Shown: in pieces, positions 1 through 12,765 of the stretch
Layout: each line of letters opens with the position of its first letter
Numbering within the stretch: position 1 is the stretch's first letter
Source of the DNA: an uncultured Alphaproteobacteria bacterium
Lineage (GTDB): Bacteria; Pseudomonadota; Alphaproteobacteria; ATCC43930; CGMCC-115725
Direction: 5' to 3'
Length of the DNA: 24,000 bases
Assembly: GCA_963702925.1 (NCBI GenBank)
Contig: OY969771.1
Coordinates: 2,080,715-2,104,714 of the forward strand
Translations under genes and position numbers: made by a program
Notes under the pieces: model-generated
The model's database searches: none
What the model saw: only the letters and a program-made list of their open reading frames with translations
Told to the model about the DNA's origin: nothing

Positions 1-16
1 GGCGCAGCTCGCCGCC

Positions 17-634
17 ATGGACTGGCCGACGTTGCACACTGCGCTGCGGGAGGTTGTCGCAGGAATGCGCACGGCCTCGACGGAGGCCCTGATTCGCATC
101 TGCCGCAAAGCCCACGAGGCCGGCGACCGCGCCAAGGTCAACCTAGCGTTCGAGGCCGCGAGCAAGACGGCTACGCCCTTGCTCCTTTCGCAGGCGTTCG
201 GTCAAGCCGAGGACGAGCGCAGGGAACAGGCGCAGGAAATCCTCTTGCAGCTCTTTACTGCGATCCGCGCCGGCAAGTCGCAGCTAGCAGAGAGATTCTT
301 CGCCGCCTTTGCGAAACGGCGCTCGATTGATCTTTTCCGCCGTCGCGAGGCGCGGCTCGAGGGCAAGTTGGATCGGATCGAACCGGCCGGAGAGGCCGAC
401 CCGATCGACGAGGTACCGGGCCGGGGTGCAAGTGTCGAAGCTCGCGCTCTGCTATCGGTCGCTGTCGAGAAGCTGCCACCAAAGCTCAGGATAGCCTTCA
501 TCCAGTATCATCGCTTCGGGATGACGCAGGAGGAGGTCGCCGAACAGAACAAAGTTGATGTCCGCACGGTCCATGAATGGCTCAAGGAAGCCCGCGCCGC
601 GCTCGGACTCAAAGGAGATGGAGATGACCGCTAA
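17..634 (+). CDS. Sigma-70 family (ECF-like) RNA polymerase sigma factor
   Basis: 205-aa ORF. It has a region-2-like segment (AEDERREQAQEILLQLF...FAKRRSIDLFRRREAR) and a region-4 HTH (LPPKLRIAFIQYHRFGMTQEEVAEQNKVDVRTVHEWLKEARAAL). Its stop at 632-634 overlaps the next ORF. The ATG at 17 is close to the window edge, so the true start could lie upstream. Confidence 0.7.
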   Translation: MDWPTLHTALREVVAGMRTASTEALIRICRKAHEAGDRAKVNLAFEAASKTATPLLLSQAFGQAEDERREQAQEILLQLFTAIRAGKSQLAERFFAAFAKRRSIDLFRRREARLEGKLDRIEPAGEADPIDEVPGRGASVEARALLSVAVEKLPPKLRIAFIQYHRFGMTQEEVAEQNKVDVRTVHEWLKEARAALGLKGDGDDR

Positions 635-1259
635 GCCGAACCGCACGCCCGATCTTGATGACGTCCTTGACGAGCTCGCCAAACTCCCTGCTCCGCCAGA
701 TGCGGGGACGCTGCGCGCCTGGACGAAAGAGTACCCTGGGTTCGCGCGCGAGATCGTTGCCTTCGCCACTGACTGGTTGGCGATGGATGCAGCACGCGTG
801 GAACGGTCCGCGACCGCCGAGGACATCGACCTCGTCGTCAACCGCACGATGAGCCGCGTGCAGACTATGCTTGACGCCGCGGAGCGCCCGGAGTCGATTA
901 TCGACCTCGCCGCCGACATCCGCGCGGCTGGACACGATTTCGATTCGTTCCAGCGCTTTCTCGGCATCGACAGGTCCATGCTGGACAGCCTGATTACGCG
1001 CCTGGCGAAGCCGGCGACCATACCGGCGTTGCTCGTCTGCTTGGCGGCCGAAGCGCTGAACCGGCCGCTCGATCGGCTGCGCGAATATTTCCGGCTCCCA
1101 GCGCAACTCGCCGGCGCCCACAAGTCTCGCGGGCGTCCGGTCCCGGCACAGGTTGACTTTACGGTGCTCGTTAGACATTCAAAACTGCCTGACCCCGACA
1201 AAGACCGGTGGCTGAAAGAACCGCCGGATCCGGACCTCCAGGGCAAACCGCATGGATAG
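624..1259 (+). CDS. Hypothetical protein, possible XRE-like HTH (candidate partner or substrate of the downstream ImmA-type peptidase domain, or an anti-sigma-like factor)
   Basis: The ORF track starts at 555, but AAGGAG (612-617) lies 6 nt before the ATG at 624, and ATG 618 is an alternative. The segment DIRAAGHDFDSFQRFLGIDRSMLDSLITRLAKPATIPALLVCLAAEALNRPLDRL resembles an XRE-type HTH pattern. The ORF overlaps both neighbours (sigma stop 632-634; helicase ATG 1252 versus its own stop 1257-1259). Confidence 0.55.
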   Translation: MTAKPNRTPDLDDVLDELAKLPAPPDAGTLRAWTKEYPGFAREIVAFATDWLAMDAARVERSATAEDIDLVVNRTMSRVQTMLDAAERPESIIDLAADIRAAGHDFDSFQRFLGIDRSMLDSLITRLAKPATIPALLVCLAAEALNRPLDRLREYFRLPAQLAGAHKSRGRPVPAQVDFTVLVRHSKLPDPDKDRWLKEPPDPDLQGKPHG

Positions 1260-4200
1260 CTTCGGCACCGTCCGTAGGCTCGCCCGCGAAAAGCATGAGG
1301 CGATGAAGGCTCGTGCGTCAGGCGACGGCACCGCAGCGGCACTCCTGGCTCAGGCGCGCACCACGACGAAAGCGGCGATCCACGGAGTGCCACCCGAACA
1401 TCCGCTGCTGGCCGGCGGCGACGGCGCGCTCCATAGGACCGGGCCGACGCCGTCGATCTACATCTCGGATGCGCTGGCTCCGGACCAGGCCGCCTACGTC
1501 GAGGCGCACGAATTCGGCCATCTCTGGATCGAGACACCGACCGAACCGGCGGTGGCGCCCTGCAACTCGGATCCATCGACGCCGGAAGAAAACACGCCAC
1601 TCGGACTACGTCGGGTAGAGGCCTACAGCCCGGAGGAACTGCGCGAGCGGTACGCCAACGTTTTCGGACGAGAGTTTCTTCTTCCGTGTTCGGAAGCAAA
1701 GCGACTATTCGGTTTGGGCAAATCGGCGAAGCAAATCGCAACCGACATCGGCGTCCCCATCGGCCTCGTCAACCAGCAGCTCGCGGCCGCGCTGCTGCTA
1801 CCCGAACCGTCCACCGAAGAGAAGGCTGTGGAGCGCGAGCGTCCAGGGCTCGACAAATCCCAGAAGATGGCCGCCGAACACGAAGGTTCGCCGCTGCTCG
1901 TCGAGGCGGGGCCTGGCACGGGCAAGACTCGCGCTCTAATCGCGCGGATCGAATATCTGCTTGCCAAGAACGTCCCGGCACCGAGCATTCTCGTCCTGAC
2001 TTTCTCGAACAAAGCTGCGAGGGAGATCAGAGAGCGCGTTGCGGGAAGCGTACCCGGAGCGGTGCCGGAAATCTGGGCGGGAACATTCCACGCCTTTGGC
2101 CTCGAACTCCTCCGCAAATACGGCCACCTCGACGGCATAGCCGAGCCCGTAAGGTTGCTCGATCAGGCCGACCAACTTGCACTGCTCGAACGCGAACTAC
2201 CGCGCCTCGGACTCGACCACTACTTGCGCCTTCACGAACCGCTTTTGGAACTCCGCAACATTATCGGCGCTATTTCGCGCGCGAAGGACGAAGTGTTCTC
2301 GCCGTCGGCATATGCGGACGCCGCCCGGCGCATGCTCTCGAAAGCTGGTTCCGATGAGGAACTCGTTCTGCGAGCCGAGAAAGCCGCGGAGGTCGGGCGG
2401 GTATATGCCCACTACGACGCTTGCCTTCGCGCCGAAGGCATCGTCGATTTTGCCGACCTCATCAACCAGCCCATCGAGATCCTGCGGAAGCATCCTGACA
2501 TCCGCGACGAATTGTGCGGCCAGTACACGCACATCCTGGTCGACGAATACCAGGACGTAAACCGCGCGAGCGCGCTGCTGCTCAAGGAGCTTGCCGGCGA
2601 GGGCGAGCACCTGTGGGTCGTCGGTGACGCACGGCAATCCATTTACCGGTTCAGAGGAGCCGCGCCTTCAAACACGACCGAGTTCGAGAAGGATTATCCA
2701 AAGGGCAAGCGTCTGCCGCTAGCCGTCAACTATCGGTCGAGAAAACAGATTGTCGATATGTTCGGAACCTACGCCGCCGGCATGAGCGTCGGCGGCGGCC
2801 GGAACCACTCACTTCGGGCGCACCACGGCGCAGGCACCAATCCGATCGACTTCAGCGTCGCGTCCGACCGTAACGCGGAGATCGCGGGAATCGCGGCCGT
2901 GATCCAGCGGCGGCGCTTGGCAGGCTGCGCCTACCGCGAACAGGCCGTACTTTGCCGCTCGCACTCCAATCTCCAGAAGATAGCGACAGGGCTCGAAGCT
3001 GTCGGCATACCCGTGCTGTACCTGGGCGACCTCTTCGAGCGGCCAGAAGTTCGAGACCTCCTTTCGCTCCTGTCGTTCGCATCCGAACGCCATCGCGGCG
3101 GCCTCATGAGGGTGGCAACGCTCCCGCGATGGCGCACACCGCTCGCCGACGTTCGGACGTTTCTTGCGCACGCCGCCGAGACTGAGAAGACGCCGCTCGC
3201 CGCCCTCGCGGCCGTGGAGAACCTCGACGACCTTTCGCTGACGGGGAGGAGTGCGCTCGCGCAGCTGCGCTCCGACCTCGATGGTGTCGGCTTCAAGACC
3301 GGGCCCGGGCAGTTCCTGTGCGACGTGCTGTTCGAGCGTGGTCTTGTCCGTGACTATCTCTCCGGCAACACAGCCGCTGACTGCCAGCGGCGGCTCGCCA
3401 TTCATCAGTTCCTTCAATTCGCTATTGAATACGACCGCGCGGGCGAAGGCGACCCAAAGCGCCGGCTGCTTGGCTGGGTCCGGCGGCTGGAGGTGTTCGG
3501 CGATGAGCGCGCACTGCGCGAACCACCGGCAGCTGTCGAAGGTATCGACGCGGTGCGGCTCATGACCGTTCACGCTAGTAAAGGTCTGGAGTTCGAGACC
3601 GTGCATCTGCCGACGCTTGGGAAAGGCATCTTCCCTCTGAAGCGGCACGGCGTGACCTGTCCTCCACCGGACGGAATGCTTCTTACGACGGCAGAGGATG
3701 ATCATAACGAGGAGGAAGAATGCCTCTTCTTCGTCGCGCTGTCGCGTGCTCGTGGCCACCTGTCGCTCTCGCGAGCGCAGCGCTATTCCGACAGCCAGCG
3801 CTCGAATCCTTCTCCCGCGCTTGAGGCGATCGCTGCACATCTCCCCCGGGCGCCGGACTCAGACCCTACATGGACGGCGCGGCTTCCCACGCCGACCGCA
3901 GGCGGGAGCCGCCTCGACCTCAAGCGCGCAGCGCGTGAGCACGACGGGCGGGACATTGAACTCTACATCGGTTGCCCACGCCGCTATCTCTATCAGGCGA
4001 TGCTAGGGCTGAGCGGCTCGCGCGAGGATAACGGCTACGTCCGGTTCCATGGCGTTCTCTACCGCGTGTTGGGTTGGATGGCCGAACAGACCGGCACCGT
4101 GACGACCGACGCGCTCAAAGCGGAAACGGACGCGCGCTGGGCCGAGACCGGTCCGACGGACCATCCGCTGCAGCCGCTATACCGCGCCTCCGCGCAGAAG

Positions 4201-4620
4201 ATCCTCGATCAGGCTAACGCGCGGCCGCGCAAGGGGATCCGGTTTGGAGAGACGCTGACCGCCACCATCGCCGGCCACACCATCAGCCTTTCGCTCGATG
4301 AGATCCAGAAGGACGGCCGTGGCTTCGTGATCCGTCGGCTCCGGACCGGGAAGGTGCCGAAGAAGCAGGACCACCGCGTCCTGCATGCGCTCATGGCGGA
4401 GGCCGGGAGGCAGGCGTTCGGAACAGGCGGCAAATTCGAAATCCGCTATCTCTCTTCCGACGACGCGGTGCCGATCTCCTTCGCCCGCGTCATGGCCGAC
4501 CGCCTCGAAGAGACCAAGGCCGTCATCGCAGGGCTCGCGGCCGGTGAATACCCGCCGATTCCGTCCGATAACTGCCCGCGCTGCCCGCACTACTTCATCT
4601 GCCAGGCCATTCCCGAGTGA
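1252..4620 (+). CDS. Three-domain fusion: N-terminal ImmA/IrrE (M78) metallopeptidase-like domain, UvrD/Rep-type SF1 helicase, and C-terminal Cas4/AddB-like PD-(D/E)xK nuclease with a Cys4 (Fe-S) cluster
   Basis: 1122 aa. Peptidase motifs: HEFGH (nt 1507-1521) followed by ERYANVFGREFLLP. Helicase motifs: GPGTGKT (1909-1929), TFHAFG, ILVDEYQDVN, VVGDARQSIYRFRGA, VNYRSRKQIV, TVHASKGLEFETVHLP, FFVALSRARGHL. Nuclease signatures: IGCPRRYLY (Cys codon 3973-3975), SLDEIQKD...IRRLRTGK, and CPRCPHYFIC (4573-4602). Confidence 0.9.
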   Translation: MDSFGTVRRLAREKHEAMKARASGDGTAAALLAQARTTTKAAIHGVPPEHPLLAGGDGALHRTGPTPSIYISDALAPDQAAYVEAHEFGHLWIETPTEPAVAPCNSDPSTPEENTPLGLRRVEAYSPEELRERYANVFGREFLLPCSEAKRLFGLGKSAKQIATDIGVPIGLVNQQLAAALLLPEPSTEEKAVERERPGLDKSQKMAAEHEGSPLLVEAGPGTGKTRALIARIEYLLAKNVPAPSILVLTFSNKAAREIRERVAGSVPGAVPEIWAGTFHAFGLELLRKYGHLDGIAEPVRLLDQADQLALLERELPRLGLDHYLRLHEPLLELRNIIGAISRAKDEVFSPSAYADAARRMLSKAGSDEELVLRAEKAAEVGRVYAHYDACLRAEGIVDFADLINQPIEILRKHPDIRDELCGQYTHILVDEYQDVNRASALLLKELAGEGEHLWVVGDARQSIYRFRGAAPSNTTEFEKDYPKGKRLPLAVNYRSRKQIVDMFGTYAAGMSVGGGRNHSLRAHHGAGTNPIDFSVASDRNAEIAGIAAVIQRRRLAGCAYREQAVLCRSHSNLQKIATGLEAVGIPVLYLGDLFERPEVRDLLSLLSFASERHRGGLMRVATLPRWRTPLADVRTFLAHAAETEKTPLAALAAVENLDDLSLTGRSALAQLRSDLDGVGFKTGPGQFLCDVLFERGLVRDYLSGNTAADCQRRLAIHQFLQFAIEYDRAGEGDPKRRLLGWVRRLEVFGDERALREPPAAVEGIDAVRLMTVHASKGLEFETVHLPTLGKGIFPLKRHGVTCPPPDGMLLTTAEDDHNEEEECLFFVALSRARGHLSLSRAQRYSDSQRSNPSPALEAIAAHLPRAPDSDPTWTARLPTPTAGGSRLDLKRAAREHDGRDIELYIGCPRRYLYQAMLGLSGSREDNGYVRFHGVLYRVLGWMAEQTGTVTTDALKAETDARWAETGPTDHPLQPLYRASAQKILDQANARPRKGIRFGETLTATIAGHTISLSLDEIQKDGRGFVIRRLRTGKVPKKQDHRVLHALMAEAGRQAFGTGGKFEIRYLSSDDAVPISFARVMADRLEETKAVIAGLAAGEYPPIPSDNCPRCPHYFICQAIPE

Positions 4621-4715
4621 CGCAGAAGCGACTTCCGCTTTTCCGGAGACGCCGCGACTAACCCTTCAGAGCAGCTGACCGATCGCCGGCCGGCACCCAA
4701 GAGAAGGGTTCTCAA

Positions 4716-5231
4716 ATGCGACCAATCGATGTCTTCGTCCAAGGCGGGGAAATCGCCGAAATTCTGGTCGGGCGCGCAGCCCCGATCCACTCGCTGGCCG
4801 AGGTGCTGGCCAATCTCGAACGTCCCGTTCCCCAGGGAGAAGGGATGCTGATCTTCGTCGAAGACATGCACGCGCCCGTCGATCCGGAGACGACCGTCGA
4901 GGAACTGCTGCCGCTGTGCGTCGACGAAGAGGCGATCATCGTGCCGCTGCGGCTCCACGTTTCGCGCTGCCGGCACGTCGAAGTGTCCGTCCGCTTCAAC
5001 GGCGAGCACGTAAAGCGTCGCTTCCCGCCTGGTGCCACCATCGGCCGTGTCCACCACTGGGCGGCGCGCCGCGCCTTCGGCCTGTCGCCCCGCGACGCGG
5101 CCGAGCACGTCCTGCAGATCCAGGGCACCCAGAAGCGCCCCGACCGTGACGTGCACATCGGGACGCTCACTTCCGGCACGACCTGTTCCATCGCGTTCGA
5201 CCTGGTGCCGCGCAAGCGGGTGGAGGGCTGA
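4716..5231 (+). CDS. Tandem beta-grasp ubiquitin-like protein (multiubiquitin / BilA-like) with a free C-terminal glycine
   Basis: 171 aa, with two halves of about 80 aa each, sized for beta-grasp domains. The protein ends ...LVPRKRVEG-stop (Gly codon 5226-5228). It is followed 2 nt later by the E2-like gene. Its position and size match the first gene of Ubl-E2-JAB-E1 operons. Confidence 0.7.
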
Positions 5232-5233
5232 AG

Positions 5234-5707
5234 ATGTCCACCGGCATCGGTCCAGACGAGGCGGTGTTCCGCAGCCATCTCGGCGGGGGCAGCTTCCTGC
5301 TCGGCACCACCGCCGGACGCTGGCGGCTGGTCTCGGTCGCCTGGCCGCACGCCGTGTTCGGCGTGCGTGCCGCGGACGGGATCGAGTACGGCCTCCGGTT
5401 TGAGTGCCGCGACTATCCGCACACGCCGGCCACGGCGCGGCCATGGGACATCGAACGCGACGCTCCCCTCGCGCCCGAACGCTGGCCGACCGGCAGGAGC
5501 CGCCTGCCGCTGGCGTTCAACCCGAGCTGGAAGAACGGTTCGTGCCTCTACCTGCCTTGCGACAGGCAGTCGATCGAGGGCCACGCGAACTGGCATCACG
5601 AACATCCGAGCCTGATCTGGGATCCCGCCCTCGGCATCGTCCATTACCTGCGGATCGTCCACGATCTCCTCAACTCAGGCGACTACGGGGGACGCCGTGC
5701 AGCATGA
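5234..5707 (+). CDS. Prokaryotic E2/UBC-like ubiquitin-conjugating enzyme homologue (BilB-like)
   Basis: 157 aa, tightly packed between the Ubl and JAB genes. Candidate catalytic cysteines lie in [18 protein letters not shown]. The assignment rests mainly on size and operon position plus this Cys-loop, so it is less certain than the JAB and E1 calls. Confidence 0.6.
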
Positions 5708-6179
5708 TCCGTTACTGCGCATCGCCCGGCCGCTGTGGCGCGAGATGACTACCGAGCTCCACCGCCGCACTGAAGGCCGCCACGAGTCCGGCGCGTTCCT
5801 GCTTGGGCACAAGGCGGCCGACGGGCGCACCGCGCGCGCGCTCGTCTATTACGACGATCTCGACCCGCTCGCCTACGACACGGGCATCTGCGTGTTGCAC
5901 GCGGACGCCTTCTCACGGTTGTGGGACATCTGCGGGGAACGCGATTTGTCTGTGGTCGCCGATGCCCACGTCCACGGCGGCCGCGCCGGCCAGAGCCCAT
6001 CGGACCGCGAAAATCCGATGATCGCGTGCCCCGGCCATCTCGCGCTCATCCTTCCTCTGATGGCTCGGCCTCCCGTGCGCCGGTGGGCAGTCGGCATCTA
6101 CGAATATCTCGGCGAGCACCGGTGGCGGCCGCACGGCGGCTGCTGTGGATCGCGCATTCTCAAGATAGAGGACGAATGA
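5697..6179 (+). CDS. JAB/JAMM (MPN+) metalloprotease, deconjugating enzyme (BilC-like)
   Basis: 160 aa. It has the upstream Glu in HESGAFLLG and a JAMM-like metal site, [13 protein letters not shown] (H-x-H-x6-S-x2-D). The GTG start at 5697 overlaps the E2 stop by 11 nt. The stop at 6177-6179 overlaps the E1 ATG at 6176. Confidence 0.85.
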
Positions 6180-7534
6180 TGAACGACTTGGAAGCGGTGT
6201 CGGATGCGCTCAACCGTCTCGTCAAGATCGCGCTCGACACGGGCGAGGCGTCGAGCGTCGAGGAGGCGGAGCAGATCTTCAGAAACTACCGGATGCAGAT
6301 CGTCGTCGGCGCCGACGTCATGCACAACGCCGTGCTGCAGGCGACGTTGCTGACGGCGGTCAACTGCGCTGCACGCAGCTTCCTGGGCGGCGTGACCGTC
6401 GTCGGAGCGTTGGGTGTTCTGCGCGTGATGCTGCCTCCGTTCCTCGACCTCGAAACCGCCGTCGCTGGCCTCGGTGCGCGGAGGACGGAGGTGCCGGATC
6501 CGGACCTGCCGATGCTGGTGATCGGCGATGTCGATGTCGCTCTATTGAAGCCGCTCGCAATCCGGGCGACGTTTTCTCAGTGGTGCGGCGGCATCGTTCC
6601 GGCCGCGAGCAACGTACGTCTAGCCGAGATTGGCGCGTTCACTCCAGCAGGCGTGCTCGCTGGCGCGCTGGGCGTTTGCGAGATATTCCAGCGCGTGCGC
6701 GGAGGTGCGCCGATGGCGTGCCGGAGGGCCGCCGGTCTGGACCTCTGGGATCCGCGGCGGGACTGGCTGCGCGGCGAAAGCGCGCCGCCTCCAGAGCGCC
6801 TTCCCGCCGCTGCGTGGCTCGTCGGGATGGGCAATCTCGGTCAGGCCTACCTCTGGACGCTCGCGCTTCTTCCCTACGGCGAAGAAGCCGCCAACCTTGT
6901 CTTGCAGGACACCGATATTCTCGCGCCATCCAACCTCAGCACGTCGTTGCTGACCACGCGTGAAAGGATGAAACGGCGCAAGACGCGGGAGATGGCTGCG
7001 TGGGCCGAAACGCGCGGCTTCAGGACGTCCATAGTGGAGCGGATTTTCGCAGCCGACTTCAGGGTCGGTGAACGCGAGCCTGCAGTGGCGCTCATTGGCG
7101 TCGACAACGCGCTCGCCCGGCAGTCGATTGAAGACGTAGGATTCGCGCGCATCATTGAGGCCGGTCTCGGCCGTGGACCGCAGGATTTTCTCGGCATCGA
7201 CCTGCACACGTTCCCCGCGTCGAAGACGGCGCGGGAAACTTGGCCGGAGACAGGCGCGTCGGACGCCGACATCGCGCAACCGGCCTACCGCGCGATACTC
7301 GAACGGACTGGGGATCGTTGCGGGACCGTGCGCCTTGCCGGCCGTTCCGTCGGCGCACCGTTCGTCGGCGCGGCAGCTGCGGCCCTCGCCATCGCTGAGT
7401 TGATGAGGCTCTGTCTCGGAGGAACGCGCTACGAAATGGTTTCGTGCCACCTGCGCGATCTGCAAGGACGCATCATCGTCCCCAATGGACAGGAGGCACC
7501 TTTCAACCCGGGCAGCATCCAAGTCGCCGCGTAG
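6176..7534 (+). CDS. E1-like ThiF/MoeB-family adenylyltransferase (BilD-like) with a long N-terminal, possibly degenerate Rossmann-like domain
   Basis: The ORF track gives 5921-7534, but the first 85 codons are R/P-rich and overlap the JAB gene, so the ATGATG at 6176 (coupled to the JAB stop) is the likely start. That gives 452 aa. Motifs: nucleotide-binding loop LVGMGNLGQ, LVLQDTD, IGVDNALARQ, and a candidate catalytic Cys in GDRCGT. Confidence 0.85.
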   Translation: MMNDLEAVSDALNRLVKIALDTGEASSVEEAEQIFRNYRMQIVVGADVMHNAVLQATLLTAVNCAARSFLGGVTVVGALGVLRVMLPPFLDLETAVAGLGARRTEVPDPDLPMLVIGDVDVALLKPLAIRATFSQWCGGIVPAASNVRLAEIGAFTPAGVLAGALGVCEIFQRVRGGAPMACRRAAGLDLWDPRRDWLRGESAPPPERLPAAAWLVGMGNLGQAYLWTLALLPYGEEAANLVLQDTDILAPSNLSTSLLTTRERMKRRKTREMAAWAETRGFRTSIVERIFAADFRVGEREPAVALIGVDNALARQSIEDVGFARIIEAGLGRGPQDFLGIDLHTFPASKTARETWPETGASDADIAQPAYRAILERTGDRCGTVRLAGRSVGAPFVGAAAAALAIAELMRLCLGGTRYEMVSCHLRDLQGRIIVPNGQEAPFNPGSIQVAA

Positions 7535-7543
7535 CGGCGACTT
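7521..7543. terminator. Perfect 10-bp inverted repeat (AAGTCGCCGC-GTA-GCGGCGACTT) spanning the E1 stop codon; possible bidirectional terminator between convergent genes, or a protein-binding palindrome
   Basis: Read directly from the sequence. The stop TAG (7532-7534) sits in the loop/stem junction. No U-tract follows on either strand, so intrinsic terminator function is uncertain. A tandem GATTAAG repeat follows at 7549-7555 and 7557-7563. Confidence 0.35.
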
Positions 7544-7600
7544 GGTGAGATTAAGCGATTAAGTCGGCACGGCCCATATCGCGCTTGTGTGGTCGGGATT

Positions 7601-8914
7601 TCAGTCAGCTCGCATGCCCCCCCTAGGAAGCCATGCTTTGTGTCCGATTATTCGGCGTGGCGGCGGACTCCCCAGCAGCGCGAGGCCGTCCCGATAAAGA
7701 GCGTACGTGTATTCGGATGCCAGCAAAGTTAGCCCAGCGTCCTCACCGCCAATTGCGAAGCCGACAGGATCGGTCCGCGGAAGCTCGAGTGAATCTGGGA
7801 CGTTGTCTCTCCCGTTCCGGACGATCGCACTCAAAGCGTTGAGAAACCGCTCGGCGGCCTTCTCCTCCATCACGAACCATCCGGCGAATTCGTTTCCGTC
7901 CCGCCGCAGCCTGTGTGTTCCCCAGAGGCGAGGCCACCATCTCGGGTGCCAGAATTCGTCCAACCAGTCTGGCGAGTCGCTGAAGGGCCATCCCGATTCC
8001 ATGCAGGCCAGGAATATTCGGCCAGCATAGGGAATCTGTATGAAGCTCACCGGTGCCGTATCGTTTGGACGCTCTCCTCCGTCGCGAACCCAATCGATCC
8101 ATCGCGCGACGCTAGGCGCGTTCATCAAAGAAAAGTTAGACCGATGCGCGGAAAGCGCGAGCGATGTTGGCGTTGCCTCAGGACCTGGCATCGGATCCGC
8201 CTGTGTCGGAGGCCGGCGCTTGCCACGCGGTTTGGGAATCCGCGTCTCAGCGACGTGCAGGAAGGCACCCGCTGCTCCCGGTCTGGAGCCAAACGCTATC
8301 GAGTATCCGTGAACGACCTTGCCGTGAGGAGAGATCGCGGCGAGATGAGGCTTCACCTGCCGCAGATATTTGTGCTTCGCTTGGCGGCTGATGCCGGCGG
8401 ACGTGACATTTGCTGCAAATGACCCACGCGCTTCGGCCAGCACCACGCCGTGTCCCGATACGGCACCATCACCGTAAATGAAATCGGCGTGCGGCGCGAG
8501 CGAGCGTGATAGGCAGGACGCGTTGTCCCTCCAAGTGTAGCCCAGCGCGTTCACGGGCAAGTCAGTGACGCCGGTGCCAATGCGTCCAGCAAAGGACGTC
8601 CGCTCGGCATCGACGAGAGAATGGACATACCGTGTTAGCGCGAAGGTAGTGCCGTCGTCGACCAACCATTCCACTTCCGTCAGCGCGCTGTCGCCCCACC
8701 GCGTCAGCATTTCCGACGGCGCGTCTCGGAGCGTTGCCGTCCTTGCGATCGAGGCAGCGAGCGCGCCCGGTCCGAATATCAGTGTCGTACCTGCATTGGG
8801 TGGCTTGAAGCCCGCGGAGATGGGGCTTGGACTGTGTCGATGCTGCGTATGGCCGGTGACAGAGACCATCTTGTCACTGCGCCAGATCGCGGGAGCAGAC
8901 AGGACGGTGCTCAC
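7601..8914 (-). CDS. Hypothetical protein, 437 aa (possible PD-(D/E)xK-like core in the N-terminal half; Trp-rich C-terminal domain)
   Basis: GTG start at 8914 is preceded by AAGGAG with a 6-nt spacer. The amino-acid composition looks like a real protein. The segment FAGRIGTGVTDLPVNALGYTW...APHADFIYGDG...VVLAEARGSF...KHKYLRQVKP is reminiscent of restriction-endonuclease-fold cores (D...E-x-K with K replaced by R). The C-terminus contains DWLDEFWHPRWWPRLWG. I recognise no confident family. Confidence 0.7.
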   Translation of the reverse strand: MSTVLSAPAIWRSDKMVSVTGHTQHRHSPSPISAGFKPPNAGTTLIFGPGALAASIARTATLRDAPSEMLTRWGDSALTEVEWLVDDGTTFALTRYVHSLVDAERTSFAGRIGTGVTDLPVNALGYTWRDNASCLSRSLAPHADFIYGDGAVSGHGVVLAEARGSFAANVTSAGISRQAKHKYLRQVKPHLAAISPHGKVVHGYSIAFGSRPGAAGAFLHVAETRIPKPRGKRRPPTQADPMPGPEATPTSLALSAHRSNFSLMNAPSVARWIDWVRDGGERPNDTAPVSFIQIPYAGRIFLACMESGWPFSDSPDWLDEFWHPRWWPRLWGTHRLRRDGNEFAGWFVMEEKAAERFLNALSAIVRNGRDNVPDSLELPRTDPVGFAIGGEDAGLTLLASEYTYALYRDGLALLGSPPPRRIIGHKAWLPRGGMRAD

Positions 8915-8950
8915 GACACGCTCCTTATCGACCGGCTCCGGCTGTCCACT

Positions 8951-9487
8951 TTATGAGGCATCGCAAGACGGGAGGATCGACGCGAGATCGGGCTCGACGT
9001 CGAGACCATATTGATATGCCAGAGCCGCGATGTGCGTGCCAAACGTCGCCCGCAATTCGCCCAGGGCCACGAAGAAGGACGGGCTGCCCTCTTCGTCGTC
9101 TGAATGCCGCGGGCCGTGCCATCGCATGAGGTTGCGGAAATCTGGCGCCGGCTCTTCGAGGAATCTTCGACACGCGGCACGCATGGCGCGAACGGAACCC
9201 GCGGCCCGCGACGTTTCGGGCAAAGCCTGCAAGGCCTTTGTCAGCACCTCACGAATCTGGAGCACCGAGGAAGTGACCTGGGAGACGACCTCAAGGTGAT
9301 GGGGAACGAATAGAACGCGCCGATCTTCCAAGACCGTTAGAAGGCCTCTGACGATTTCGCGCTCGTCGGCGGGCGGTGTCCACTGAACGCCGAAGAACGG
9401 CAGCGAGAATCCGGTCAATCGGTTCACCGGCGATTTCGCCGCGATCTGTCCCTTCTTGGTGATATTTCGCGATCTGGCCACCTTCAC
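8951..9487 (-). CDS. Hypothetical protein, about 176-178 aa
   Basis: The ORF lies 36 nt upstream of the 437-aa gene on the same strand. GGGGAGG abuts the GTG at 9487 and lies 6 nt before the in-frame GTG at 9481, so 9481 is the more likely start. No recognisable motif. Confidence 0.65.
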   Translation of the reverse strand: MKVARSRNITKKGQIAAKSPVNRLTGFSLPFFGVQWTPPADEREIVRGLLTVLEDRRVLFVPHHLEVVSQVTSSVLQIREVLTKALQALPETSRAAGSVRAMRAACRRFLEEPAPDFRNLMRWHGPRHSDDEEGSPSFFVALGELRATFGTHIAALAYQYGLDVEPDLASILPSCDAS

Positions 9488-9546
9488 CCTCCCCGACCTT
9501 TGTTATACGCCGCATCCGACTGGAATTGATGCTCCCCAATCGGCAC

Positions 9547-10461
9547 TCACCGGAGTAGCCGCATGAGCGCGTCTGATTGCTCGGCGAACTTTAGGGCGTT
9601 GGTCTTCCGAAGCCGTTCCAGGTTTTGCAGCTTCCAGCGCAGGCCGGGGAGCTGCTCCAGATGCGGCACGCCCAGCAGCGGCCATTCGGGCTTTGCGGCG
9701 ACTAGCGACAGCAGAAACCGGCGTTCGTCAGCGCCCAGACCTTGCTGGAGCTCGCGCATCATCCGGTCGCGCGCCGCCAGGAGCGCATCGAGCTCGACGG
9801 GCTCGGCGGTCATGCCTGTGAAATTGTGCTCGAACTCCTGGCGGATGTCGCGCAGTGATGGAAACAGGACCTCGTGGACCGGCCGGTTATGACTCGCGAG
9901 GTAGACGACGAACGCGCGGCGAATGCCGATGGTGATTCCCTCATGCGCGAAGAGCTGCAGGACATCGAACAGATCGCGGGGATGTTGGCGGTCCATCGCT
10001 GCCACCAGCTTGCCGCCATACACGTCCTCGAGCGACACGACTGGGATCTCGATATCCGCCTGCAGCGTCTCGCGCGCAGTCTGTGTCAGCGACGCCCTGC
10101 GCACCGGAAGGACGGTGCCGCGCATGACGAAGTTGACCTCGATCTTGACCTCGATGTTGCCCCGCCGCACCAGCAGCTTGGTCTCGCCGGCCGCCGCGGC
10201 GGCCGGCGCATGGGTCTGGAAGCCTTGCTTCTGCAGGCGTGCCGCGGACTGGCGAATGGCCTCGTTGATGCGCTGGAGCGCCTGCTCGCGCGGCAGCGTG
10301 TGGTCGGGAAACACCAGGTCGAGGTCGACCGAGAGCCGCGGCATGTCGCGCACGAAGAGATTGATCGCCGTGCCGCCCTTGAGCGCGAACGTGTCGTCGA
10401 CGAGCACGAGCGGCGCGACGCGCGTCAGCAGCCGTGCGCTGTCTAGATAGACCTGGTTCAT
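9547..10461 (-). CDS. abiEii: AbiEii/AbiGii-family nucleotidyltransferase toxin (type IV toxin-antitoxin / abortive infection)
   Basis: 304 aa. It carries the nucleotidyltransferase-fold signature ALKGGTAINLF...LSVDLDLVF and the overall DUF1814-like pattern (VSLEDVYGGKLVAAMDRQHPRDLFDV). An ATGA start/stop overlap with the upstream antitoxin gene lies at 10458-10461. Confidence 0.9.
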   Translation of the reverse strand: MNQVYLDSARLLTRVAPLVLVDDTFALKGGTAINLFVRDMPRLSVDLDLVFPDHTLPREQALQRINEAIRQSAARLQKQGFQTHAPAAAAAGETKLLVRRGNIEVKIEVNFVMRGTVLPVRRASLTQTARETLQADIEIPVVSLEDVYGGKLVAAMDRQHPRDLFDVLQLFAHEGITIGIRRAFVVYLASHNRPVHEVLFPSLRDIRQEFEHNFTGMTAEPVELDALLAARDRMMRELQQGLGADERRFLLSLVAAKPEWPLLGVPHLEQLPGLRWKLQNLERLRKTNALKFAEQSDALMRLLR

Positions 10462-11269: not shown

Positions 11270-11499
11270 AATTCGCGTCATTCTAAATCAGAATTGAGGG
11301 GAAAGCTGTCCCTTGCCGCCGAGTTTTGGGGTCTCGGCCGAACCCTTCCGCGGGGAGACCCCACAACGCCCCAGAGCGAGAGTGCAGACGGAGTTTTCCG
11401 TCACGGCTCTAGCCAGTCAAGGCGAAGCCATACAACTGCACTGAACCGAATGGGAGTGACACCAATGCTTAAGGAGGAGCCGAGAAACCCCCGTGCCGC

Positions 11500-12765
11500 T
11501 CACGCACCATTGCCGCCGCGGCGCCTCTGCGAACGTGCGAGCTGTATCGCGAGATGACCAACCGCTAGCTTCACGTAGCGCTGGACCATCTTTGGACTTT
11601 TCCATCCCCCGAGCACCATGAGCGAAGGGGCATCGACACCGTCCATGACCGCCCAGCTCGCCCAATGATGGCGCCAATCGTGAATTCTAAACCAGTTGAT
11701 TTTCGCAACGAGTTCCGGGCGGCAGGTCTTATGGCAGCTTGCGCAGGAGAGCGCGTAGTCGCTCAGCTCCTCCCGTTCGCCGGCGGGACGAACAACCGCG
11801 AGCTCGACGCACGCGTTCGCCGGGCCTCCTGGTGCCGCGCTGAGCTTGGCGCCGCAATGCAGACAGGTTTTTTGGTCCTTCAGAAGCTTCTTGATCGTGA
11901 ACCGCCGTAGCGCCGTGGCGTGCGCCTTCCGAATACCCGAACCGTCGCGCCCCTCACCATGCGAGGCGCTGCGGCGATCGACATAAGGCGTTCCATCTGG
12001 CTTGACGAACACCGGCCCGCTGGTTTGAAGATTATGCATCTTCTCCAACGTCGCGCGGACTTCCGGGTGCATCGGCGCGACCCGCATGTCGCCGTTCTTC
12101 GTCTTGCGGAAGGTCACTGTGTCGCGACTTAAGCTGACGTCCGGCCATTGCAGACGAAGCGCTTCGGATTCGCGGCACCCTTGAAGGCAAAGCGTCAGCG
12201 CAATGGGCTTCGCGTGGTCGGCATATTCCGCCAGAAGCCCGTCTCGGTCCTCGGACTCCAGGAAGATCTCCCGAACGGCTCCGTCGGACGGCAACACGAA
12301 CTTCGGCAAGGTGAGCTTGAACTTCTCCGCCGTGCGCACGAGCGGCGGCGAAAACATCGCGTACCAGCGCCGCACCGTGGCCGGCGCCGGATCGTCGAGC
12401 TTCTCGGCGACGAACTTATCCCAGTCTTCGGGCTCGAAGGAGTCGACCGGCTTCTCTTCGAAGAACTTTCCGAGACGCAGCAGCTTCTGGCGGTCCTGGT
12501 TCCCGAGTGGCGTACTTCCTTTTGCCTTTGCGTCCACGTAGTCGGCGGCGGCCGTCGCGAAGCCGGGGATGGCCTTTGATTTGGCGGGCTTTTCGCCGCG
12601 GAGCAGCTGCTCGCTGATCTCGGCGCAGCGGCGGGTATAAATTACCTGCGCGCTTGTCTTGTCGCGGCAGCCCGTAGTCTCTCTAATCCGGACGCTCGTT
12701 TTCCCAACGCGGATCGTGCCAACGATCCAGAAGACGGCACCCCGTTTGGTGAGCTTGGAGGACAT
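11500..12765 (-). CDS. Tyrosine recombinase / phage-type integrase with a CxxC...CxxC insertion in the catalytic domain
   Basis: 421 aa. It has an arm-binding-like N-terminus (KRGAVFWIVGTIRVGKTSVRIRETTG). Catalytic elements: LQGCRESEALRLQWPDV (Arg), HDWRHHWAS (HxxR), GGWKSPKMVQRYVKL (Tyr). An extra segment, CLHCGAKLS...CASCHKTC, lies between the K-hairpin and HxxR. Confidence 0.9.
   Translation of the reverse strand: MSSKLTKRGAVFWIVGTIRVGKTSVRIRETTGCRDKTSAQVIYTRRCAEISEQLLRGEKPAKSKAIPGFATAAADYVDAKAKGSTPLGNQDRQKLLRLGKFFEEKPVDSFEPEDWDKFVAEKLDDPAPATVRRWYAMFSPPLVRTAEKFKLTLPKFVLPSDGAVREIFLESEDRDGLLAEYADHAKPIALTLCLQGCRESEALRLQWPDVSLSRDTVTFRKTKNGDMRVAPMHPEVRATLEKMHNLQTSGPVFVKPDGTPYVDRRSASHGEGRDGSGIRKAHATALRRFTIKKLLKDQKTCLHCGAKLSAAPGGPANACVELAVVRPAGEREELSDYALSCASCHKTCRPELVAKINWFRIHDWRHHWASWAVMDGVDAPSLMVLGGWKSPKMVQRYVKLAVGHLAIQLARSQRRRGGNGA

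Follow-up and report, generated by a model that had tools for sequence, protein, structure and literature searches.

A cassette of four tightly packed genes occupies positions 4716-7534 of a 24,000-nucleotide (nt) window, the whole stretch of DNA that was analysed, from an uncultured alphaproteobacterium (contig OY969771.1, positions 2,080,715 to 2,104,714). The genes encode, in order, a ubiquitin-like protein (Ubl), an E2-like conjugating enzyme, a JAB/JAMM metallopeptidase and an E1-like activating enzyme, and we conclude with high confidence that they constitute an intact Type I BilABCD (bacterial ISG15-like) anti-phage operon. The cassette is a further copy of an already described family (Millman 2022; Hor 2023/24). 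The interest of the locus lies outside it, in a sigma-like/M78-helicase front end and a shared promoter that are apparently undescribed.

All four genes are on the forward strand. The first, bilA (4716-5231), encodes a Ubl of 171 amino acids (aa) with two tandem beta-grasp domains, ending in RVEG followed by a stop codon. It is followed by bilB (5234-5707), which encodes a 157-aa E2-like enzyme with Cys109 as the candidate catalytic residue, and by bilC (5697-6179), which begins with GTG and encodes a 160-aa metallopeptidase of deubiquitinase-like type. The last gene, bilD (6176-7534), encodes an E1-like enzyme of 452 aa, or of 451 aa if translation starts at 6179. Reading the junctions directly gave a 2-nt gap between bilA and bilB, an 11-nt overlap between bilB and bilC, and a 4-nt overlap between bilC and bilD (junction ATGATG), in agreement with the list of open reading frames (ORFs) and with the spacing reported in an earlier note made from this sequence. 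Most homologues of BilD are 451 aa long and align to its second Met, encoded at 6179, which may be the true start; the overlap with bilC would then be 1 nt. A purine-rich stretch resembling a Shine-Dalgarno sequence precedes each of the four starts, and gene order, sizes and overlaps are common to this cassette and to related Bil loci.

Full-length matches to the PADLOC models for BilA (E = 9.7e-54), BilB (E = 2.3e-60), BilC (E = 5.2e-61) and BilD (E = 1.8e-163) establish family membership for every protein of the cassette; we take these models to be derived from the Bil set of Millman et al. The earlier note had described a Bil-like Ubl-E2-JAB-E1 cassette of known type, a description borne out both by these matches and by the folds of BilA and BilB. 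The Pfam families that it put forward fared less well, since Multi_ubiq, Prok-E2 and Prok-JAB gave no match at E <= 0.1 and the ThiF score fell short of the threshold for that model. Suitable families are BilA_UBL_2, BilB-like/DUF7665 and BilD_N, together with the PADLOC Bil models; BilA_UBL_2 (PF27055) and BilD_N (PF27312) are precomputed for homologues. BilA and BilC have no Pfam match at E <= 0.1, and none of the four cassette proteins matches an NCBIfam model. Phmmer searches of BilA, BilB and BilD against PDB sequences returned nothing meaningful. Because searches of PDB sequences yielded either nothing meaningful or only weak matches for BilD, fold-level evidence was used.

The AlphaFold2 (AF2) model of BilA, computed from a 42-sequence alignment, has a predicted local distance difference test score (pLDDT) of 90.1 and a predicted template-modelling score (pTM) of 0.85. 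It contains one beta-grasp unit at about residues 3-83 and a second at about 88-165, with a flexible tail after them, and Foldseek aligns it over about 170 columns (E about 1e-6) with linear di-ubiquitin, ISG15, FAT10 and the tandem Ubl of OASL in the PDB. The proposed division of this protein into two beta-grasp domains therefore agrees with both its model and its structural neighbours. Its last codons read R-V-E-G-stop, so that Gly171 is terminal and ready for conjugation, also as proposed. Among close homologues, 116 of 120 end in Gly and 115 of 120 in RVEG. Among diverse full-length representatives, 101 of 120 end in Gly and the remainder have tails of 2-7 residues, counts that agree with the 12 BilA homologues with overhangs of 2-9 aa reported by Hor et al. 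(10.1101/2023.09.04.556158). Two representatives, P0370 (325 aa) and P0500 (327 aa), have about double the length and match BilA within residues 1-163; they may be fusions of BilA with BilB, in which case processing by the JAB peptidase would be needed.

BilB has a single Pfam match, to PF24702 (DUF7665, now named BilB-like; E = 3.8e-62), and a profile search against PDB sequences gave no match. Its AF2 model has a pLDDT of 92.8. The three best PDB matches of this model in Foldseek are E2 chains of 8tz0 and 8tyz (8tz0_C, 8tyz_C; template-modelling score 0.53-0.61), which are crystal structures of a bacterial E1-E2-Ubl complex, and human Ube2W follows. The 157-aa protein thus adopts a UBC-like fold, as had been supposed, with the crystal structure of a bacterial BilB as its closest counterpart. 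Conservation singles out C109 (in LYLPCDR), H117 and H124, each present in 38 of 39 sequences, whereas C104 is present in 34 of 39, and C109 rather than C104 is our candidate for the catalytic Cys. One divergent BilB, from a locus linked to XRE and M78 genes (L011 in G016, 11436-11918), has Trp in the C109 column and a Cys four residues further on (…ERRC-AGH). Either its active-site Cys may be shifted or the alignment may be off at this point.

Residues E30, H91, H93, S100 and D103 of BilC are invariant in 16 of 16 loci. The spacing H-x-H-x6-S-x-x-D equals that of the solved BilC deubiquitinase (DUB), which a phmmer search recovers (8tyx_B, E = 4.3e-5). The JAB and E1 motifs that had been picked out from the sequence are found at E30, H91-V-H93 and S100-P-S-D103 of BilC and, in BilD, at 216-222 (GMGNLGQ) and 309-316 (VDNALARQ). 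At residues 94-95 of BilC (5976-5981), beside the metal ligands, the sequence reads HVHGG, and 11 of the 15 other loci have Pro directly after the second His.

BilD is laid out as an N-terminal domain (about residues 1-200) and an adenylation domain that begins at about residue 205. Ten of its residues (G217, G219, G222, D245, D247, K269, R271, D310, R315 and C382) are invariant in 30 of 30 sequences; they include the loop G217-x-G219-x-x-G222 and the candidate catalytic residue Cys382. A profile search against the PDB aligns region 211-318 weakly to the active adenylation domains of UBA3, UBA1 and ThiF, and the Pfam ThiF model gives E = 5.5e-4 and 19.6 bits, against a cut-off of 28.1 bits. 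The earlier note had put the portion without a GxGxxG motif at the first 270 aa or so. With the loop at 217-222, this domain is instead about 200 aa long. The accompanying idea of a pseudo-dimeric E1 has been published before for Bil E1s: crystallography of a Type II BilD showed its N-terminal adenylation domain to be inactive (Chambers et al., 10.1101/2023.09.26.559546). On plasmid pBq12S5 of Bradyrhizobium quebecense (L034 7400-8870), BilD is annotated as 299 aa with an antisense ORF over its 5′ part while a 486-codon frame stays open, which is probably a mis-annotation.

The bilD stop codon is spanned by a stable forward-strand hairpin (7516-7547) with a stem of 10-12 base pairs and a 3-nt loop. 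Its predicted folding energy is -24.3 kcal/mol (z = -5.2), and 0 of 200 shuffled sequences folded as well. The stop codon lies in the loop and the 3′ arm and no U-tract follows. The hairpin may act as a transcript end or as a stabiliser.

The earlier note called the context of the cassette its unusual part, and we attribute this to a triad of genes directly upstream and to a promoter-like motif that the triad and the cassette share. The first triad gene (1-634, forward strand) begins outside the window, 121 nt ahead of it, and its full product has 251 aa. It is called sigma-like here for its match to Pfam Sigma70_r4_2 (E = 2e-9), sigma-70 region 4 alone being detected. The second gene, taken from the ORF list (555-1259, forward strand), overlaps the first and encodes about 206-234 aa, its start being uncertain; it has no Pfam or PADLOC match, and a gene of 194-221 aa stands at the same position in related loci. 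The third gene (1252-4620, forward strand) encodes an 1122-aa fusion in which Pfam identifies Peptidase_M78 (HEFGH), a UvrD-type helicase and a PD-(D/E)XK nuclease; the HExxH motif is seen in the translation, and the gene ends 95 nt upstream of bilA. Pfam finds no XRE helix-turn-helix (HTH) match in the sigma-like gene or in the second gene, whose product is termed the ~210-aa protein below.

This triad precedes bilA in 14 of the 18 other Bil loci whose upstream sequence is readable. They comprise loci of Reyranella, three Bradyrhizobium-type loci, those of Rhizobium leguminosarum, R. phaseoli, Aminobacter, Roseovarius, Pseudohalocynthiibacter, Sphingorhabdus, Variovorax and Xanthomonas, and at two further loci, L018 and G129. 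Together they span Alpha-, Beta- and Gammaproteobacteria, with BilD identities to the window of about 38-74% and unrelated downstream neighbours. Three of the 14 triads are incomplete, namely those of Sphingorhabdus (L025), G129 and L018. The sigma-like gene of Sphingorhabdus is truncated by an IS256 element, the other 13 loci having the equivalent gene in place, and the G129 contig ends inside the helicase gene. At L018 (512-5439), a DDE transposase insertion splits the M78-UvrD-nuclease gene while bilABCD is intact, so Bil persists there with a broken front end.

The loci without the triad differ among themselves. Cupriavidus EM10 has two upstream genes that match in size and position, with no family match, and lacks the helicase; Burkholderia cepacia has none of the three genes. 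G016 (L011) and Rhizobium N621 (L022) carry instead a divergent XRE-HTH and M78 pair or fusion of the CapH/CapP type, and in a 20-row BilD tree these two form a separate clade with support of 100/100. Triad-linked Bil systems as such do not form one clade in that tree. The label needs at least 3 changes, and its clustering is no better than that of shuffled labels.

A bipartite promoter-like motif, TTCCGnTTTT-N11-GCGAyT, lies at 4633-4659 on the forward strand, 57 nt upstream of the bilA ATG. It is conserved in the spacer between helicase gene and bilA at nine aligned loci (TTCCGnTTTT, about 11 nt, GCGAyT), and it also stands upstream of the sigma-like gene at seven loci. When both strands of the 4.72-Mb genome were searched with the pattern TTCCGNTTTTN{9,13}GCGAYT, there were exactly 2 matches, and a reversed control gave 0. 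The second copy is found 183-157 nt before the window (L031 3818-3844) and ends 36 nt short of the sigma-like start, on its upstream side. Likewise, four other distinct loci (L002, L016/L017, L020 and L024) have the motif at both expected promoters, and it is kept at both places in relatives from three proteobacterial classes. A looser pattern, CTTCCG-N15-18-GCGACT, was not enriched across the genome, with 5 matches against 16 in the control, so it is the tighter motif with its T-run alone that is specific. A consensus scan of positions 1-9600 of the window for sigma-70 promoters and intrinsic terminators found nothing above shuffled expectation.

Such a two-copy layout is what is expected for an autoregulated alternative sigma factor with one extra target. 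The sequence suggests that bilABCD has its own promoter at 4633-4659, with a motif in common with the triad promoter, and because the two promoters share it, induction of the cassette is more probable than constitutive expression. A dedicated sigma-like factor, whose gene lies just upstream, seems to turn it on.

The window is a defence and mobile-element island. Downstream of the cassette are AbiEi/AbiEii, a DUF6650 gene, a Dcm-type methylase, and one ordinary and two double-sized tyrosine recombinases; no tRNA gene was found in the window. The downstream neighbours of Bil in relatives are often genes for DNA-end processing, either a pair of SbcCD-like Metallophos and AAA_27/YhaN genes or RmuC, and they differ from locus to locus (L016/L017 8450-13425, L025 9598-14323, L002 9466-11274). 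Divergent from the sigma-like gene and a short way upstream of it, at 0.3-3 kb before the window (L031 958-3713), are a DUF2130 gene (603 aa) and a ParB_N-like gene. A DUF2130 gene also sits directly downstream of bilD in the relative L014 (8570-9853), and it may be a recurrent neighbour.

The BilD model matches 5 of 401 sampled genomes of the same class, and the nearest relatives are in Roseiarcus, Reyranella and Bradyrhizobium. BilD homologues fall into at least 1584 protein clusters at E <= 1e-10, and BilA homologues into 504 clusters (50% identity level) at E <= 0.001. Among plasmid records, 40 carry a BilD homologue, 23 of them conjugative plasmids. A single-sequence search for related loci gave only 3, and tblastn against plasmids together with exact-protein look-ups gave more.

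The enzymatic activity, target and defence phenotype of the cassette are inferred here by homology with the Collimonas system. On that model, BilD (E1) would adenylate the carboxylate of BilA Gly171, and BilA should need no prior processing because this Gly is encoded as the last residue. BilA would then be held as a thioester on BilD Cys382, handed to Cys109 of BilB (E2) and conjugated to lysines of the target. In the Collimonas system the target is the central tail fibre of the phage, whose modification yields tail-less or obstructed, poorly infectious virions (10.1101/2023.09.04.556158). BilC would remove, trim or edit the conjugates; its Collimonas counterpart is essential for defence (10.1101/2022.05.11.491447; 10.1101/2023.09.04.556158).

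Collimonas mutants that abolish defence map to BilA G163, E1 G219A and C385A, E2 C113A and DUB D115A (10.1101/2022.05.11.491447; 10.1101/2023.09.04.556158). By numbering, G219 and C382 of the present BilD fall at or within 3 residues of G219A and C385A, and the other positions lie within a few residues of their equivalents here, with the DUB position 12 residues off. Protection of E. coli against several phages was observed with Type I Bil operons from different genera, five in all (10.1101/2022.05.11.491447). For the present cassette, the analysis shows the structure of the genes, their membership of the family, the folds of BilA and BilB, and the conservation of every catalytic residue. Its position in a defence island and the promoter motif, rare in the genome and conserved between loci, also speak for a Type I Bil operon.

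Some observations weigh against this assignment. The equivalence of residues to the Collimonas mutants was drawn from numbering and within-family alignment rather than from a pairwise comparison. Neither phmmer nor profile searches gave a sequence-level match to the solved Type II E1 or E2, and because the E1 has no such match the structural inference for BilD comes from family homology only. Also, an hhalign comparison of BilD residues 1-200 with 201-452, the two parts that a pseudo-dimeric E1 would pair, gave a single local match of 21 residues (156-176 to 395-415, E = 0.049).

The likeliest alternative reading extends the assignment of the cassette to Type I Bil instead of replacing it. Here bilABCD would not be an autonomous system but the output module of a seven-gene unit, an interpretation towards which we lean slightly. 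The M78-UvrD-nuclease would sense phage or damaged DNA, its M78 domain would cleave the ~210-aa protein acting as an anti-sigma-like inhibitor, and the freed sigma-like factor would transcribe its own operon and bilABCD through the shared motif. The position of the triad directly upstream of bilA in 14 of 18 loci, across three classes and with unrelated genes downstream, points this way. So does the presence of exactly two copies of the motif in the genome, one at each expected promoter, as well as at both promoters of four other loci. Moreover, the Bil loci of the separate, fully supported BilD clade (L011 and L022) carry XRE-HTH and M78 genes instead. Our full-text literature searches found no description of Bil linked to UvrD, a helicase, a sigma factor or an upstream triad; the regulators reported for Bil are CapW, CapH+CapP and CapK+CapS (PMC13373217).

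Other facts argue against a seven-gene unit. Its first gene has sigma region 4 only and is annotated as LuxR-type in some records, and the second has no family match, so that "anti-sigma" is a guess. The tested Bil operons consisted of the four genes under an arabinose promoter that replaced their native promoters, and bilABCD alone protected E. coli (Millman 2022, 10.1101/2022.05.11.491447), so the effector step does not require the triad. It is also conceivable that the helicase-nuclease is a separate defence gene that merely travels with Bil. On balance we regard it as an even call that most Type I Bil operons, including the present one, are controlled by an undescribed sensor and switch of three genes. 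These would encode a sigma-like factor, an inhibitor-like protein of ~210 aa and an M78-UvrD-PD-(D/E)XK protein, and would act through TTCCGnTTTT-N(9-13)-GCGAyT.

An improbable alternative is that BilA is conjugated to proteins of the host or of mobile elements, in a non-antiviral role such as a stress response or competition among plasmids and integrative and conjugative elements. The plasmid records with BilD homologues, more than half of them conjugative, would suit such a role, as would the position of this cassette among integrases and the existence of related Bub operons without a demonstrated phage phenotype (PMC13373217). Yet the Type I Bil operons placed in E. coli protected it against phages, the neighbours here are known defence genes (AbiE and the methylase), and the cassette scores in the core of the PADLOC Bil models.

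There is still less to recommend assignment to another class of bacterial Ubl operon, whether Type II Bil/CEHH-6C, Bub/6E or a system like Cap2/Cap3 of CBASS (cyclic-oligonucleotide-based antiphage signalling), which we consider very unlikely. BilC does match the Type II DUB 8tyx_B weakly, and the best structural neighbour of BilB is a Type II E2. But BilA has two beta-grasp domains and no C-terminal tail, which are hallmarks of Type I (10.1101/2023.09.26.559546), and neither phmmer nor hmmsearch finds a Type II E1 or E2 chain. Furthermore, the locus has neither an E1-E2 nor a JAB-E1 fusion and lacks a RING E3 gene, and the PADLOC Bil models match end to end.

A sulfur-carrier pathway of ThiS/MoaD-ThiF/MoeB type, or a decayed and inactive relic, has next to no probability. 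In its favour, homologues are annotated "ThiF family adenylyltransferase", some E1 records read "thiamine biosynthesis protein ThiF" and a ThiF match below the cut-off was obtained. Against it stand the presence of an E2, of a JAMM peptidase and of a Ubl with tandem beta-grasp domains, the lack of neighbouring genes for thiamine or molybdopterin, ORFs that are all intact and keep every catalytic residue, and the setting in a defence island; the domain content effectively refutes the sulfur-carrier reading.

As a Type I Bil operon, the cassette adds one more intact example to a system whose genetics and biochemistry have been worked out, with structures available for the Type II relatives, and by itself it alters nothing in that picture. 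The locus is of wider use as a clean reference for the native regulation of Bil, which published work bypassed with the arabinose promoter, since it combines a single-contig genome, intact parts and exactly two candidate promoter copies. If the sigma-like/M78-helicase switch is real, bacterial immune operons would have a fourth kind of transcriptional control besides CapW, CapH+CapP and CapK+CapS, and the switch would be the first with a dedicated sigma-like activator. It would couple DNA sensing by a helicase to the release of a sigma factor and the induction of ubiquitin-like antiviral tagging.

Among known systems, the closest are the tested Type I Bil operons of Collimonas sp. OK412 and four others. 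In these operons and in the present cassette the same four genes stand in the same order, the Ubl is a tandem beta-grasp protein ending in Gly, the E2 has a conserved Cys, the DUB is of JAMM type, and the E1 combines the G219 loop with a Cys near 382-385; Type I Bil is found mainly in Alphaproteobacteria, like the cassette here. The differences are that BilA has 171 aa here and 163 aa there, and that the present cassette is known from sequence alone.

Type II Bil (CEHH/6C), represented by Ensifer aridi TW10 (PDB 8tz0, 8tyz, 8tyx; 10.1101/2023.09.26.559546), follows the same enzymatic logic, with a Ubl, an E1 that has inactive and active adenylation domains and a CYS insertion, an E2 and a JAMM DUB. 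Its E2 is the closest structural neighbour of the BilB model, and the H-x-H-x6-S-x-x-D spacing of BilC is shared. According to Chambers et al. (10.1101/2023.09.26.559546), Type I Ubls have two domains and a terminal Gly. In Type II, the Ensifer aridi Ubl has one beta-grasp domain and others have up to three, the E2 carries the CEHH motif, and up to nine residues follow the conserved Gly of the Ubl and are removed by the DUB (10.1101/2023.09.26.559546). By contrast, Gly171 is terminal here, and the distance from C109 to H117 is 8 residues, compared with 13 from C138 to H151 in Type II.

The eukaryotic ISG15/FAT10 pathways (UBA7 or UBA6, UbcH8, HERC5) resemble the cassette in having a two-domain Ubl modifier, both domains of which are matched structurally. 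Their modifier likewise serves against viruses, and an E1 and an E2 activate it through the Gly at its C-terminus. They differ in that no E3 gene is present here, identity is about 11-14%, the tail is RVEG in place of LRGG, and the E1 is without a ubiquitin-fold domain.

Finally, the front end of the locus resembles CapH+CapP (Lau et al., 10.1101/2022.04.27.489752) in that an M78 (HExxH) peptidase domain is encoded beside an immune operon. In contrast to that stand-alone peptidase, the M78 domain here shares one polypeptide with a UvrD helicase and a PD-(D/E)XK nuclease. Its partners are a sigma-like protein and the ~210-aa protein, and control would be exerted by promoter activation, as opposed to the de-repression of CapH+CapP.

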